Positions 1 to 13,999 of a stretch of DNA of 64,000 nucleotides are shown piece after piece (the stretch's first letter is position 1; every line of letters starts with the position of its first letter). Origin of the DNA: Pyrinomonadaceae bacterium (GTDB lineage: Bacteria; Acidobacteriota; Blastocatellia; Pyrinomonadales; Pyrinomonadaceae); assembly GCA_036392495.1 (NCBI GenBank), contig DASVXV010000163.1:2951-66950 (forward strand), read 5' to 3'. The notes beneath the pieces are model-generated. The model saw only the letters and a list, made by a program, of their open reading frames with translations, was not told where the DNA came from and did no database searches. The position numbers and the translations under genes are program-made.

Positions 1-1321
1 CGACGCCGATAATCAAGGCGAAGAACATCAGGTGAAGCATGTTCGGGTTGTAATCGGGCGGAGTGCCGACGAGTGTCGCAATCGGATTCGATGGGACGGC
101 TGATTTGACGACCTGCATGAGCGCTGAGTCGGTCGGGGCGGCGGGGACAGTGGCCGTCATCAGAGTCGGGGATTCGACTTTGGCTGTCGCGCTCAGGCCA
201 TTGAACTTGAGGGTCGTGTCTTCGGTAAAATTCGTCCCGGTAATCGAGACCGTGCTGCCGATCTCAGCGGTGGCGGGAGAAATGCCGGTAATCGTCGGCG
301 CTATATCTTTCGGCGCATCCAGCGTCAGCGTAAAACTACCCGTCGTGCCAGGGTTGAAAGAAGAGACTTCGACGAGGTAAAGCCCGTTCTCGGGCAAACG
401 ATAGAAGCCCTCACCCGCAGGTATTCTTGATCCGTTATCGCCTGCGCCGTCCTCGTCGCGGGCGATTACCGATCCGCTGGGGCCGATTAAGTAGAGAGCT
501 GAATTGAAGTCCGTTGCCGCGAGCGCGATTGCCAACTGCTGGTCCGTGCCCGCCGTGAAAGAGTAGCGCCGCACGTAAAACCCGCTCTCCTTGAAGAGAG
601 AATGGCACTTGTTGGCCGCGAGCGCGCCAGTCACCGTTTGTCCCACCTGGATAGTTTCGGACGCACACTCATCTTTCGCCGCAGACTCGGTTTTCGCCGC
701 GGGCTTTGCGCCCGGCGCAACGGCTGTGAAGTTGGCGGGGCTTGTGGCAGTGCCTTTTTTATTCGTGACGGTGACAGGACCGCTGGCCGTAGCGCCTATT
801 GCGTCGCCGACGCGCTTTTTGGCATCAGAGGCGAAGCGCTGGTCGTCTCTGATCTTGTCGGCAGTATCCTTATCAATCCGCTTGCCGGGCCGAATGGTGT
901 TGGCGAGCGTGAGACCGATGACGACGGAGATGGCCGAGATGATGAGGCAGTAGGCGAAAGACTTGAAGCCGATGCGACCGAGCTTGCGGATGTCGCCGAT
1001 GCCGGCGACGCCGACGACCAGAGAAGAGAAGACCAGCGGCACGACGATCATCAGGAGCAACTGGAGGAAAAGCTTGCCGATTGGCTCCGTGACGTGGTAG
1101 ATGACGCTTTCGACCGTCTTGTTGCTATCGCCGAAGATGGCGTTGACCGTGAGCCCCGCAACGACGCCGACGGCCAGCCCGATCAGGATGCGCGTGTGGA
1201 GCGGCATTCCCTTAGGCTTGTCCGGCGTCTCCTCGTCGAGATCGGTCGTTACCTCTCGCTCGAAAGCGTCCCGTTCTATCTCGGGTTCCTTCCCGCGCTT
1301 CTTATCTTTTTCGTCAGCCAT
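1..1321 (-). CDS. dicarboxylate/amino acid:cation symporter (DAACS/GltP family), C-terminus cut by window edge, with large inserted extracytoplasmic region
   Basis: Not in the ORF track because it runs off the window. I checked the minus frame by hand: ATG at 1321, SD GAGGAAG upstream, open through position 2 (440 codons, no stop). N-terminus MPLHTRILIGLAVGV...EPIGKLFLQLLLMIVVPLVFSSLVVGVAGIG and ...NMLHLMFFALIIGV are typical GltP TM1-3 and TM4. About 270 aa between them look like PPC plus IPT/TIG domains. Confidence 0.8.
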   Translation of the reverse strand, partial: MADEKDKKRGKEPEIERDAFEREVTTDLDEETPDKPKGMPLHTRILIGLAVGVVAGLTVNAIFGDSNKTVESVIYHVTEPIGKLFLQLLLMIVVPLVFSSLVVGVAGIGDIRKLGRIGFKSFAYCLIISAISVVIGLTLANTIRPGKRIDKDTADKIRDDQRFASDAKKRVGDAIGATASGPVTVTNKKGTATSPANFTAVAPGAKPAAKTESAAKDECASETIQVGQTVTGALAANKCHSLFKESGFYVRRYSFTAGTDQQLAIALAATDFNSALYLIGPSGSVIARDEDGAGDNGSRIPAGEGFYRLPENGLYLVEVSSFNPGTTGSFTLTLDAPKDIAPTITGISPATAEIGSTVSITGTNFTEDTTLKFNGLSATAKVESPTLMTATVPAAPTDSALMQVVKSAVPSNPIATLVGTPPDYNPNMLHLMFFALIIGV

Positions 1322-1329
1322 CTCTTCCT

Positions 1330-1405
1330 CGTAAATCGTGAATCGTAAATCGTGAATCGTCGAACGGTTTTCCTCTATTTACGATTCACGATTTACGATT
1401 TACGA
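1330..1405. repeat. heptad-stem hairpin, family A (CGTAAAT/CGTGAAT units)
   Basis: Left arm cgtaaatcgtgaatcgtaaatcgtgaatcgt, loop cgaacggttttcctct, right arm atttacgattcacgatttacgatttacga. Several pairing registers are possible because of the 7-nt periodicity. Confidence 0.9.
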
Positions 1406-2292: not shown

Positions 2293-2426
2293 CAATCAAC
2301 CTGTGCTCGTGGAAAACGATTGGGCGCGCTTCACTTCGGATTAAAAGCCGCGTCCGGTTCGCTGCTCGCCAAAGTTAGGGCCAACATCTTTAATTACTTG
2401 TGATTACTTTAAAAGAGACGGCTCGG

Positions 2427-2456
2427 ATGATACTCGCCCGCGCTTTTCAGTGTCAA
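2427..2456 (-). promoter_or_regulatory. sigma70-like promoter upstream of nadK
   Basis: Minus strand reads TTGACA (2456-2451), 18-nt spacer, TATCAT (2432-2427), about 130 nt upstream of the nadK ATG. Confidence 0.4.
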
Positions 2457-2522
2457 CGGAGAGAAATTCTGAAAGTTTGAGAGGCGACGCAGGCTGTGAG
2501 TGCCCGCGCCAGTTTTCGGTCC

Positions 2523-2563
2523 AAAAAGATTGCGCCGCTTCCAACGAGTGAAAGCGGCGCAAC
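2523..2563 (-). terminator. intrinsic terminator (minus strand)
   Basis: Minus strand reads UUGCGCCGCUU-loop-AAGCGGCGCAA (11-bp GC-rich stem) followed by UCUUUUU. Confidence 0.7.
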
Positions 2564-3045
2564 CTTTAATCCCTAAAACTGCCGAAGCAATTCAGGGGAT
2601 AATTTGGCAACAACGCATGTACACGCAAGTTGTTGCCGATTTATATTCCGGACAAGAGGCTGGCGGTCAGCCGGACTTCCGGTCGGCACGCGATCCGTTT
2701 TCACGAACCTCGCTCGGCCCTTGCGGGCCAGCGGTGCCATTTGGTTTTTGTTGTGGTGGCTTTTCCTCCACCGCCGGTTACGTCCCCGGCAACGAGGCTC
2801 AAGTCCGAAGACTCAAGCGACTTGCTACTTCAAGGCTGATCATTTCCTCGAAAGCGCGACTGCGTTTTTATCCGCTGCCGCTCAAGATGAGAGCCTTGCG
2901 ACCCTCACTTGAAGCCAAGCCTTTCGGCTTCAGCGCGAGGTGTAAAAGCTGCAACAGCCGCCTGTTGCCACTCTCAAACGGCGCGTCACCGCACCGCTTG
3001 CCTCTCCTCTCGCTGGTCACGATGCCCGTGAGCACCGCGACGAGG
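2523..3045 (-). ncRNA. candidate ~520-nt structured non-coding RNA, family unknown
   Basis: Lies between its own promoter (3080-3052) and terminator (2563-2523) in a ~950-bp gap without a credible ORF. Multiple helices are capped by UUCG or GNRA tetraloops only when read on the minus strand. One 9-bp stem (2797-2818) has two G.U pairs on minus that would be A.C mismatches on plus. Confidence 0.45.
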
Positions 3046-3051
3046 GTGTGG

Positions 3052-3080
3052 GTTATACGCTGGCGCGCCGAACAAGTCAA
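3052..3080 (-). promoter_or_regulatory. near-consensus sigma70 promoter (minus strand)
   Basis: Minus strand reads TTGACT (3080-3075), exactly 17 nt, TATAAC (3057-3052). Confidence 0.55.
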
Positions 3081-3249
3081 GCAGAAAATACTTTAAGAGT
3101 TGAAGCGAGTGGTTGTGGAAAAATCTGTGGAAAACTTGGACCGTTTGAAACCCTCAGTAAAACCGCAGCGGACGTGAGAACAGGAAGAGATTTGTCCTGG
3201 AAAAGGCGGCCGAAAATCAGAAAAAATTTTCGCCTCTCTGCCGATATTT

Positions 3250-3723
3250 CTAAACCAGCGACAGCTCGAAGCCGTATTCGACCGTATTGTTGGAATCCTT
3301 CAGCTCGCGTATTCCTGTTTCCCTGAAGCCCATGTTGCGATACAGGCGGTGCGCGTCCGTAAAGCGCGTATCGCTCCAGAGGATCATCCTGGATTTACCC
3401 TGCGCGCGCGCCCGCTCCATCGCCAGGTCCGTCAGCCTGCGTCCCCAACCCTGACGCCGCAGACGCGGATGGACGTAAAGCGACTTCAATTCGCCCGTAT
3501 CCCCATGCAAAATCACTGCAACTGTCGCCAGAATGTCGCCCCCGTCTTCGACGACCCAGAACTCGCCCCCGCCCGGACGAAAATAAGCTCCGGGTTCGAG
3601 CAGATGACGCTCTTCATTCTCGGCGTCGAGCACACAATCATATTCGGCATAAATGCCGGAGATTAACTTCAGGATGCCGGGCACATCCTCTGCGATGGTC
3701 GGACGAAGCTGCATCGGATTCAT
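3250..3723 (-). CDS. GNAT family N-acetyltransferase
   Basis: 157 aa. Acetyl-CoA binding motif RRQGWGRRL, typical GNAT length. Confidence 0.85.
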   Translation of the reverse strand: MNPMQLRPTIAEDVPGILKLISGIYAEYDCVLDAENEERHLLEPGAYFRPGGGEFWVVEDGGDILATVAVILHGDTGELKSLYVHPRLRRQGWGRRLTDLAMERARAQGKSRMILWSDTRFTDAHRLYRNMGFRETGIRELKDSNNTVEYGFELSLV

Positions 3724-3747: not shown

Positions 3748-4431
3748 TTATCTAACGTAGATGACGGGCAGGCTCGCGCGCGCCTTGCGGGGCGTGCCGC
3801 CCTTTCCGGCTTGATTCGGCGAATTATTCCCTCTTCCTTTGCGCCGCTTGCTCCACTGACGCGCCAGGCGCTCCAACTCCGATTTACTGGATTCCGGATC
3901 AACGAGCGTGAGCCAGAGCGGGATGGGAAGCCACGCCCACGCTGCGCCGTAAACCTCCTCATTCAACTGCTCTGTGCGGTGCTCGGCGCGCGCCTGCAAG
4001 CTCGCGGGCGGCAAGTCCTCCCAACGCTCATAACAGGCATGCTGAATGCACGGGGCGGGCTTGGCGCGGGCATGCACCAGACAGCCGATTGAGGGTTCGT
4101 AGAGCGGGCAGGAATATGTCTGCCCAAAGGTATCTCCAGAGGCGCTCAGCTGGAAACGCGACACGGCTTCCCGCGCCCGTTGATAAACGGCACGCTTCGC
4201 AGCCTGGCTCAAACGGGGCGTGCGCGCTAAGGTTTCGCGGATGGCGACGGCCTCAAGCCTCGTGACGTTCACGTTGACGAAATGCGCGTCCGTACAGCAG
4301 ACGCCGCGCGTCGGACAGGTCTTGCAATCGGAGGCCGCGTGCTCGTAGTTGACTTTAATGAAGCGCTGGTAAGAGGTCTTCAAACGCTGCAACCGCGCCA
4401 GCGCTTTCGGTTCGGACAGTTTTCGGCTCAT
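3748..4431 (-). CDS. YkgJ-family cysteine-cluster (CxxCxxxGxCC) protein
   Basis: CKTCPTRGVCC motif plus downstream Cys residues. The start overlaps the tlyA stop as ATGA. Confidence 0.7.
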   Translation of the reverse strand: MSRKLSEPKALARLQRLKTSYQRFIKVNYEHAASDCKTCPTRGVCCTDAHFVNVNVTRLEAVAIRETLARTPRLSQAAKRAVYQRAREAVSRFQLSASGDTFGQTYSCPLYEPSIGCLVHARAKPAPCIQHACYERWEDLPPASLQARAEHRTEQLNEEVYGAAWAWLPIPLWLTLVDPESSKSELERLARQWSKRRKGRGNNSPNQAGKGGTPRKARASLPVIYVR

Positions 4432-13908: not shown

Positions 13909-13999
13909 GGAGATGTGGCCGAGTGGCTGAAGGCGGCGGTTTGCTAAACCGTTATGGGTCAAAAGCCCATCACAGGTTCGAATCCTGTCATCTCCGCCA
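13909..13999 (+). tRNA. tRNA-Ser (anticodon GCU), encoded CCA
   Basis: Acceptor GGAGATG/CATCTCC, anticodon stem GCGGT/ACCGT with loop TTGCTAA, long variable arm, T-arm ACAGG-TTCGAAT-CCTGT, then GCCA. Confidence 0.92.

Follow-up and report, generated by a model that had tools for sequence, protein, structure and literature searches.

A predicted large ornate RNA of Pyrinomonadaceae, encoded by a free-standing gene with DnaA-box-like promoter sites in two of three subfamilies

What occupies the gap at positions 2296-3249 of a 64,000-nt stretch of DNA from a Pyrinomonadaceae bacterium (assembly GCA_036392495.1, contig DASVXV010000163.1; the whole stretch is referred to as the window) is the question addressed here. 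The gap separates two minus-strand genes, with nadK (1408-2295, minus) on one side and a GNAT acetyltransferase gene (3250-3723, minus), identified via Pfam Acetyltransf_1, on the other. An initial annotation, made from the letters of the sequence, had reported no credible open reading frame (ORF) in this gap and had proposed in its place a discrete, highly structured non-coding RNA of approximately 520 nt, read from the minus strand and supplied with its own promoter and terminator. Our results argue for the same view: the sequence features it had listed are all present at the positions given, and each of its proposed checks that could be computed came out in its favour. The predicted RNA gene spans 2523..3046 (minus), a length of approximately 524 nt counted from the predicted 5' end through the last residue of the terminator's U-run. 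Its sequence is conserved and covarying, it contains no conserved ORF, and it occurs as a free-standing gene in at least three unrelated gene contexts.

The ends of the transcription unit are well marked in the window. The near-consensus minus-strand promoter that had been noted there (TTGACT-17-TATAAC, 3080-3052) is present, with its -35 hexamer TTGACT at 3080-3075 and, after a 17-nt spacer, its -10 hexamer TATAAC at 3052..3057 (minus), which is kept as GTATAA[C/A] across all subfamilies. The predicted RNA 5' end was set approximately 6 nt past this -10 hexamer. The promoter was missed by a simple consensus promoter scanner because the scanner demands a T at position 6 of the -10. At the other end lies an intrinsic terminator (2523..2567, minus), whose previously described 11-bp core stem (2560-2550 paired with 2542-2532) is followed by AUCUUUUU and can be extended to a 19-bp hairpin (2567-2549 with 2544-2525; 2567-2525 overall) ahead of the U-run CUUUUU at 2528-2523. 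Within the family alignment the terminator helix is 94% paired and 18 of its 19 pairs covary. The sequence of the hairpin, UUGCGCYGCUUUC...GRAGCRGCGCAA (2525-2567, minus, and homologues), is conserved to a degree unusual for an intrinsic terminator, which suggests that it may also have a function within the mature RNA, perhaps in 3' protection or binding. Downstream of the terminator and outside the RNA, nadK has a promoter of its own, TTGACA-18-TATCAT (2427..2456, minus; 11/12 match), whose region is conserved with nadK even at loci without the RNA. Because the nadK promoter sits past the RNA terminator, the RNA is set apart as a transcription unit of its own. Folding of the interval 2523-3050 gave -259.3 kcal/mol for the minus strand (z = -10.7 against 100 dinucleotide shuffles) and -213.1 kcal/mol for the plus strand (z = -4.8, likewise against dinucleotide shuffles), so that the degree of structure lies well outside what chance would give. 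The RNA is single-copy within the window.

To establish how widely this sequence occurs, NadK was used as an anchor for 80 loci from species-representative genomes, all of them Pyrinomonadaceae or Blastocatellia metagenome-assembled genomes (MAGs), and metagenome contigs were scanned with the most invariant motif of the RNA, CGGCGGTGGAGG-N3-4-GCCACCA, as an exact 19-nt pattern. More than 110 homologues with 60-86% identity were obtained, 12 from Pyrinomonadaceae MAGs and approximately 100 from soil metagenome contigs, and at least 82 of them are full-length copies 60-86% identical to the window RNA. Among the matches listed, an RNA profile was positive in 109 of 123 loci tested (3 from a viral scan and 120 from the metagenome motif scan). 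A homologue of the region was found in 12 of the 80 nadK loci, those with the highest NadK identity, where the gene order of the window type is dxs - p237 - tlyA - p227 - (GNAT) - RNA - nadK. The other 68 loci lack the RNA by both an nhmmer profile and a covariance model, neither of which uncovered a hidden divergent copy, and in them tlyA or p227 abuts nadK. The tlyA...nadK interval, which had been put forward as the place to look for relatives, therefore did yield the RNA in 12 of them but is not its fixed home, given the 68 of 80 loci without it and the two other contexts described below. The RNA-bearing contigs DATHTI, JADMIO, JBFXKX and CAYRCQ belong to assemblies other than those of the RNA-less nadK loci.

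Further contexts were found by clustering the flanking ORFs. In addition to the first context, p227/GNAT followed by the RNA and nadK, the RNA was found between a HIT-family protein gene and genes for a glyoxalase-like protein and an EamA transporter (36-43 loci among the matches listed) and between rpmA (L27) and obg (11-13 loci among the matches listed). The neighbouring genes are co-oriented with the RNA in all contexts, and protein searches with the HIT and Obg neighbours gave close relatives with Pyrinomonadaceae names at NCBI (89% and 83-89% identity, respectively). No gene is called in the 675-950-nt gaps filled by the RNA in four NCBI/ENA contigs (L204, GCA_035463335.1; L206, ERZ25039586; L207, GCA_016307145.1; L209, ERZ794930). 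In 5 of the 12 genomes of the nadK context, 0.9-4.5 kb of unrelated genes lie between the RNA terminator and nadK. Since the contexts number at least three and are unrelated, the RNA is a free-standing gene and not a leader. It has been relocated between at least three chromosomal positions and is family-wide in Pyrinomonadaceae (Acidobacteriota). A single locus, L157, is multi-copy. It carries two RNA copies in tandem (minus, 75-607 and 721-1208) with 87% identity to each other. The spacer holds a separate A-rich/-35/-10 promoter for the downstream copy, and the contig ends within the upstream copy.

The strand and the non-coding nature of the RNA were evaluated across the homologues. G.U pairs make up 11.6% of the paired cells, and reading the other strand lowers the pairing from 92.0% to 81.7%, which extends to the whole family the strand signal that had been seen in two G.U wobbles of the 2818-2797 stem, both of which are present. 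The loops are likewise GNRA or UUCG on the minus strand only. None of the ORFs in the gap is conserved: among 73 homologues, a 55-aa minus-strand ORF retains its ATG in 8, in-frame stops occur in 65, and the homologous segment varies in length with no preference for any residue modulo 3 (26/21/26). The internal minus-strand ORFs and a 198-aa plus-strand ORF are unconserved among the homologues. The conserved small ORF that would have argued against an RNA is thus missing, and the RNA is non-coding. The 198-aa ORF (GTG start, 2500-3096, plus strand) spans the whole RNA gene and is rich in Arg, Leu and Pro; its antisense counterparts range from 48 to 172 aa among the homologues. It is an artefact of GC-rich structured sequence, and gene finders could miscall it as a hypothetical protein.

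Comparative analysis established that the RNA folds into three domains with approximately 20 helices, several of which are capped by GNRA or UUCG tetraloops. In an alignment of the 13 genome-derived sequences, RNAalifold proposed 143 pairs with 96.0% of the cells paired, as against 36-43% when the alignment was slid by 1-3 columns, and 49 pairs were changed on both sides, as against 8-18 in the slid registers; none of 500 shuffles reached any of these measures. Three covariance models (R1, R2 and R3) were then built, and approximately 100 copies were aligned to each. The resulting domain alignments were 91-93% paired, compared with approximately 40% in shifted registers, and 114 of the 138 pairs displayed compensatory changes. 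Covariation in relatives, one of the checks that the initial annotation had called for, is therefore very strong in all three domains, where it was reached by 0 of 500 shuffles and exceeded the slid controls 2-4 fold. All five tetraloop hairpins that had been named from the window alone are present at their positions, with loops that are canonical on the minus strand only. The near-invariant unpaired nucleotides cluster in the central junction and a few loops, and the subfamilies differ by insertions of whole hairpins at peripheral positions, a pattern of gain and loss that resembles the expansion segments of RNase P or rRNA.

The 5' domain (2856..3046, minus) was examined with R3 in alignment A7, in which 99 distinct sequences are 90.6% paired and both partners change in 57 of 62 pairs, as compared with 19-29 when the register is slid. 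It begins with hairpin P1 (3041-3016) and the multi-branch helix P2 (3015-3006 / 2940-2931), which encloses a GUGA-capped hairpin (3000-2975) and a hairpin with a GGCGG loop (2974-2945). These are followed by the invariant GAAA hairpin AAGCC-GAAA-GGCUU (2930-2917), a GCAA-capped hairpin (approximately 2912-2882) and a hairpin with a GGAUAAAAAC loop (2881-2856), all on the minus strand. The central domain (2684..2855, minus; R1/A4, 97 distinct sequences) is 93.1% paired, with both-side changes in 23 of 36 pairs against 5-13 in slid registers. Read on the minus strand, it opens with a hairpin at 2855-2827 and the UUCG hairpin GCUUGAGUC-UUCG-GACUUGAGC (2818-2797), which includes two G.U pairs. 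Next come invariant 5-bp hairpins at 2790-2773 and 2772-2755, the latter with a AGGAAAAG loop, then an A-rich single strand, and finally a helix (2739-2734 / 2689-2684) that encloses one hairpin with a GCAA loop (2733-2711) and another capped by GAAA (2709-2692). The GGCCC-GCAA-GGGCC hairpin lies at 2729-2716 (minus). The most conserved core of the RNA, GCCUCGUUGCCGGGGACGUAACCGGCGGUGGAGGAAAAGCCACCACAACAAAAACC (2743..2798, minus), shows almost no variation among the 13 genome-derived sequences, whose retrieval relied on NadK and was independent of the core motif. In the metagenome copies the invariance of the core motif is forced because part of it served as the search pattern.

The 3' domain (2568..2683, minus) was aligned together with the terminator (R2/A8, 2683-2523), giving 92.9% pairing and both-side changes in 34 of 40 pairs against 14-24 in slid registers. 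On the minus strand it comprises a CCGG/CCGG helix (2682-2678 / 2652-2648) around a hairpin with a conserved GACCGCC loop (2672-2658), the conserved single strand AAUAUAAAU, a long hairpin GGCAACAAC...GUUGUUGCC (2637-2606) with the invariant tip GUGUACAU, and a UUCG hairpin (2593-2576; AAUUGC-UUCG-GCAGUU at 2592-2577) closed by AUCCC/GGGAU (2600-2596 / 2573-2569). The automatic RNAalifold seed for this domain had assigned a wrong local hairpin to GGCAAC...GUUGCC and was replaced after per-sequence analysis. Evaluated sequence by sequence, the GGCRRC/GYYGCC helix is fully paired in 96 of 100 copies, and its many compensatory variants include GGUAGC/GCUACC, GGUGAU/AUCACC and GGCAGA/UCUGCC. A suggestive long-range contact may join the outer domains. 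The GGCGGC of a 5'-domain hairpin (2957..2962, minus), whose GCGG core is near-invariant in 73 sequences, and the CCGCC of a 3'-domain hairpin loop (2662..2666, minus) are complementary candidate loop partners. The register of the fifth pair varies by subfamily (GGCGG/CCGCC or GCGGU/ACCGC), and in L162 the change is compensatory (ACGG with CCGU). A classical 11-nt GAAA tetraloop receptor was considered and rejected; CCUAAG occurs in some homologues and the UAUGG half is absent.

Comparison with known RNA families bore out the novelty of the RNA. The Rfam 15 library (4227 covariance models) was searched with cmscan both at gathering thresholds and at E<=10. At gathering, the whole window returned only a tRNA-Ser (13909-13996); this tRNA-Ser (GCT; 13909-13999, plus strand) is the sole Rfam or ARAGORN hit in the 64 kb. 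At E<=10 with relaxed filters, the RNA region gave two chance matches, both to the terminator hairpin, and 14 diverse homologues gave scattered microRNA-type noise with no shared family. The only Acidobacteria-specific non-coding RNA motifs that the literature search brought up are Acido-1 and Acido-Lenti-1 (RF01686, RF01687; PMC2864571). Their models match neither the window nor the 14 homologues. BLASTN at distant sensitivity found no match in 50,697 phage and 72,556 plasmid records, and a full-text literature search that included the Breaker-lab genome surveys returned no description of such an RNA.

The initial annotation had failed to find, by eye, the P4 strands of RNase P RNA, the tag or T-arm of a transfer-messenger RNA (tmRNA) or the domain IV motif of signal recognition particle (SRP) RNA, and the family models and ARAGORN were likewise negative. 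For RNase P RNA there is no Rfam hit at E<=10 and there are no P4-type conserved strands, and the GAAGUCCGG of the window is unconserved in the homologues. No tmRNA was called by ARAGORN or by Rfam, the 3' end is a terminator hairpin, and no acceptor or T-arm can be formed from the ends. 6S RNA is not matched by Rfam either, and the 524 nt with approximately 20 separate helices include no long bulged helix or open-promoter-like bubble. OLE RNA (RF01071) gave no hit at E<=10 in the window region or the 14 homologues, and no oapA-like gene or argR is adjacent; the neighbours are the GNAT gene, a Cys-rich protein without a Pfam match and nadK, with dxs 5 kb away. The features found are instead those of a stand-alone non-coding RNA gene in general, namely a conserved -35/-10, a terminator with a U-run, a covarying structure and no conserved ORF. 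Judged by these sequence comparisons, the predicted RNA is a new class that falls into no described family.

An array of DnaA-box-like sites upstream of the promoter is a refinement that the initial annotation did not contain. DnaA boxes follow the near-universal consensus TTATNCACA, which the 9-mer TTTTCCACA fits. Two copies of this 9-mer occur in the window, a distal one at 3126..3134 (minus; approximately positions -88 to -80 relative to the predicted start of the RNA) and a proximal one at 3114..3122 (minus) in the same orientation, 12 bp away centre-to-centre. They are the only two TTWTCCACA sites in the 64 kb, where 0.3 would be expected, and they lie 34-54 bp upstream of the -35. Across the 73 non-redundant homologues, the window-type and rpmA-obg subfamilies carry 2-5 box-like sites (TTTTCCACA, TTATCCACA, TTGTCCACA, ATTTCCACA), mostly 11-12 bp apart and tandem in the same orientation in the rpmA-obg subfamily, followed by a near-invariant TTAAAGTAYTTTCTNCTTGAC block and then by the -10 hexamer. 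In the window, the UP-like A/T-rich block and the -35 together read TTAAAGTATTTTCTGCTTGACT (3075..3096, minus), a sequence near-invariant in the box-carrying promoters of both subfamilies. The relaxed pattern TTWTNCACA reaches 5.1 sites per kb within the 150 nt that precede the RNA, as against 0.048 per kb elsewhere in the same loci (approximately 100-fold), and 52 of 55 sites share the orientation of the RNA. The HIT-context subfamily has no boxes and displays a conserved AAAATAAAACAC element before TTGAYN-17-TATAAA. This element lies directly upstream of the -35, at approximately -60 to -45 relative to the start of the RNA (for example in L196, L169 and L126), and takes the place of the box array; it may represent an UP element or the site of another factor.

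The array occurs together with the RNA in two chromosomal contexts that are unrelated to each other, with no dnaA nearby and no GC-skew switch, and we therefore read it as part of the RNA promoter and not of an origin. A reading as oriC was rejected on the same grounds, as no dnaA signature and no skew switch were found in the 1.65 Mb of sequence examined. Clustered matches to TTATNCACA near the RNA promoter, the sequence mark of a DnaA regulon member, suggest that the level of the RNA may be set by DnaA in two of the three subfamilies, the one represented in the window included.

A hint of transcription came from a viral contig, L082 (IMGVR_UViG_3300048099_000016). The contig is 4124 nt long and carries genes for a levivirus maturation protein (PF03863) and an RNA replicase (PF03431, 248 bits) together with a coat-sized ORF. 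At approximately 190-395 it reproduces, in sense orientation, the central domain and the beginning of the 3' domain of the RNA (109 bits, E = 1e-28). The fragment, approximately 210 nt in length, is fused to the levivirus 5' end and is preceded by approximately 190 nt of unrelated GC-rich sequence. Levivirus genomes have no DNA stage, and the contig therefore derives from RNA. It represents either replicase-mediated capture of a host RNA or a chimera of assembly or reverse transcription; whether recombinant or chimera, the contig is RNA-derived, so that the host RNA was present in that sample. The fragment is thus an indirect hint that the RNA may be transcribed. A second motif scan of viral contigs returned 56 chance hits and no true copy.

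The surroundings of the RNA gene offer several further observations. The interval between the RNA terminator and nadK is variable, with a 1399-aa TPR protein, a DUF-type toxin-antitoxin-like pair and membrane proteins in different genomes (L001 1512-6001, L012 1427-6001, L004 4351-6001, L006 4891-5774, L009 5134-6001). An integration hotspot at the RNA 3' end was considered and rejected, as the inserts before nadK are heterogeneous and without integrase or repeats. Beside one HIT-RNA locus (L206 1-1718), genes for an nSTAND/TPR NTPase and a TIR-domain protein resemble a defence system. In the window-type context a 227-aa Cys-rich protein with CxxC...CC motifs (3748-4431, minus, in the window) is always located just upstream of the RNA/GNAT; it has no Pfam match at E<=0.01 and was found in 27 of the 80 nadK loci. 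Downstream of nadK in many other bacteria lies recN or argR. The gene 3' of nadK in the window (1-1380, minus) is neither of these and encodes a transporter-like membrane protein that runs off the left end of the window and contains an apparent inserted segment of Ig-like or bacterial pre-peptidase type.

We consider it probable that the gene encodes a trans-acting structural RNA, either a ribonucleoprotein (RNP) scaffold or an RNA-only assembly, which is made from its own gene and whose level is set by DnaA in two subfamilies. The RNA would be transcribed from its own sigma-70-type promoter and ended at its own intrinsic terminator, and the stable, compact product would act in trans as an RNP scaffold or as an RNA-only higher-order assembly. 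Its functional surface would be formed by the invariant single strands CCGGCGG-UGGAGGAAAAGCCA-CCACAACAAAAACCUAA and GACCGG...GAUAYAAAU and by the GUGUACAU loop, and a GGCGG-CCGCC tertiary contact may lock the 5' and 3' domains together. DnaA would bind the tandem, helically phased array of 2-5 boxes, located 35-100 bp ahead of the -35, and would thereby couple the RNA level to replication-initiation status, and in the third subfamily an A-rich UP-like element would take the place of the boxes. The fuller proposal, that a new DnaA-wired class of large ornate RNA forms an RNP or RNA-only assembly relaying replication-initiation or growth status in Pyrinomonadaceae, is put forward tentatively, and we would hold it at well below even chances.

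Several points weigh against these proposals. The identification of the boxes is based on the near-universal TTATNCACA and not on the boxes of this lineage's own dnaA/oriC. One subfamily lacks boxes, and DnaA control therefore cannot be essential to the function of the RNA. The loop-loop pair displays a single compensatory change, two wobble cases (G.U in L185 and L101) and one exception (L086). Transcription is predicted from the promoter and terminator and hinted at by the levivirus fragment only; that fusion is possibly a chimera of assembly or reverse transcription and says nothing on the ends of the RNA. The breadth of the family is a lower bound, and the invariance of the search motif is partly forced, because the metagenome copies were gathered with an exact 19-nt motif. 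No neighbouring gene is common to the three contexts that could point to a partner protein, and for this reason no partner can be proposed from synteny.

None of the rival explanations is favoured by the data, and two of them, a leader and a housekeeping RNA, are effectively excluded. A role as a cis-acting leader or riboswitch, whether for nadK or for whichever gene follows in each context, has the least chance of all. The RNA does lie directly upstream of nadK on the same strand in the window. However, the strong terminator is followed by the separate nadK promoter, 0.9-4.5 kb of unrelated genes intervene in five of the 12 genomes, each context has another gene downstream (glyoxalase-like, obg or nadK), and the terminator stem is constitutive and conserved, with no alternative anti-terminator; the nadK leader was rejected on these grounds. 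A very divergent RNase P, tmRNA, SRP or 6S RNA would account for a single-copy, strongly promoted, lineage-wide gene that is co-oriented with its neighbours, yet 15 family members gave no Rfam hit at E<=10, ARAGORN called no tmRNA, the 3' end is a terminator hairpin, and neither P4-type strands nor a long bulged 6S helix are present; its chance is barely better than that of a leader. That the RNA belongs to a mobile or phage-derived element, as is often true of ROOL and GOLLD, we also regard as highly improbable. The varying position, the tandem duplicate of L157, the levivirus-contig fragment and the variable cargo beside the RNA 3' end would suit such an origin, and against them stand the lack of integrase, transposase, repeats or phage genes flanking the RNA in any context and its single copy in the window. 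A phage or plasmid origin was rejected because BLAST had no hit among the 50,697 phage and the 72,556 plasmid records and the second viral scan gave no true copy.

Tandem phased DnaA-box-like sites beside an A/T-rich stretch and a structured transcript of approximately 0.5 kb might also describe a replication element, that is, a DnaA-box origin or a DnaA-titration or reactivation site with the transcript as a by-product or as a primer resembling ColE1 RNA II. This we judge improbable, since compensatory changes, G.U pairs and tetraloops leave no doubt about selection at the RNA level, a terminator closes the RNA, the box-less subfamily keeps the RNA, the flanking genes run unidirectionally across the site, and neither a GC-skew switch nor a nearby dnaA is present. 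A ribozyme, in which the ornate fold and invariant core would hold an active site for RNA processing or another reaction, is unlikely and has a small chance of being correct. Its size, number of helices, multiple GNRA loops and strictly conserved junction fit large ribozymes as well as scaffolds, but it resembles no Rfam ribozyme and lacks both a substrate-like gene context and a conserved signature of an internal processing site. To our knowledge, most large bacterial non-coding RNAs of unknown function have so far not been catalytic, which also counts against this option. A somewhat greater, still modest, chance is given to a base-pairing regulator or a CsrB- or 6S-like protein sponge that titrates a global regulator or RNA polymerase. 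Such a role would be consistent with the RNA's own strong promoter and terminator and with its conserved single-stranded A-rich and GGA loops (e.g. AGGAAAAG and GGAUAAAAAC), and CcnA of Caulobacter provides a precedent for a non-coding RNA linked to regulators of the cell cycle (PMC8959179). The 2-3 GGA loops compare poorly with the approximately 20 of CsrB-type sponges, no 6S-like open-promoter bubble is seen, and the RNA is far larger and more rigid than base-pairing small RNAs, with a conserved architecture rather than one conserved seed.

The family joins the short list of large bacterial RNAs without an assigned function. Large, intricately folded bacterial RNAs are rare, and the solved cases (ribosomal RNA, RNase P, tmRNA, group I/II introns, OLE, ROOL and GOLLD) have nearly all brought new biochemistry or architecture. 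The present family shares the hallmarks of that group in its size of approximately 0.5 kb, its approximately 140 covariation-supported pairs, its invariant core and its more than 100 natural variants. The Pyrinomonadaceae are a dominant lineage, among the most abundant in soil, and poorly studied, and we know of no specific non-coding RNA biology for them. The alignment and the three covariance models enable an Rfam-style family, structure determination and a search for partners, and the DnaA-box promoter supplies a concrete and testable regulatory hypothesis. If it were true, the RNA would be a replication-coupled structural RNA with no counterpart among the known RNA classes.

Among the known systems, OLE (RF01071, Firmicutes, approximately 600 nt) is similar in being a large, ornate, free-standing and conserved non-coding RNA with many short helices and invariant junction nucleotides, and OLE itself dimerises and serves as an RNP scaffold. 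The OLE gene often lies beside dxs and near argR (PMC10898510). The dxs...tlyA...RNA...nadK cluster of the window echoes that neighbourhood. Unlike OLE, the RNA has no sequence or structure similarity that the Rfam model detects, no adjacent oapA-like membrane-protein gene or argR/recN, a host from another phylum, most of its homologues outside the dxs/nadK cluster, and its own promoter with DnaA-box-like sites. Because the echo occurs in only one of three contexts and oapA is missing, the dxs synteny was not counted as relatedness, and homology to OLE by synteny was rejected, the model match and argR being absent as well. In ROOL and GOLLD, covarying loop-loop contacts are intermolecular bridges in RNA-only multimers (PMC12286853). 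The present RNA is likewise large and ornate, with near-invariant complementary loops and a palindromic GUGUACAU hairpin tip. It differs from both in having no Rfam match, in occurring outside phages and prophages and in not lying near tRNA islands, and it is smaller than GOLLD. The raiA-motif RNA (ModT) is comparable as a conserved, strongly structured, independently transcribed and phylum-restricted RNA; ours is approximately 2.5 times larger, shares neither sequence nor structure with it, and comes from another phylum. The housekeeping RNAs (RNase P, tmRNA, 6S and SRP) are similarly single-copy, strongly promoted, structured and conserved in their lineages, but the present RNA fails their family models, lacks their defining motifs and is so far restricted to one bacterial family. 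Finally, CcnA of Caulobacter is a non-coding RNA wired to cell-cycle regulators (PMC8959179). Unlike CcnA, which is small, base-pairing and CtrA-activated, the RNA described here is an ornate RNA of 524 nt with DnaA-type boxes and no sign of mRNA pairing; like CcnA, which is cell-cycle regulated and encoded at the origin, it has a candidate transcriptional tie to a regulator of replication and the cell cycle.

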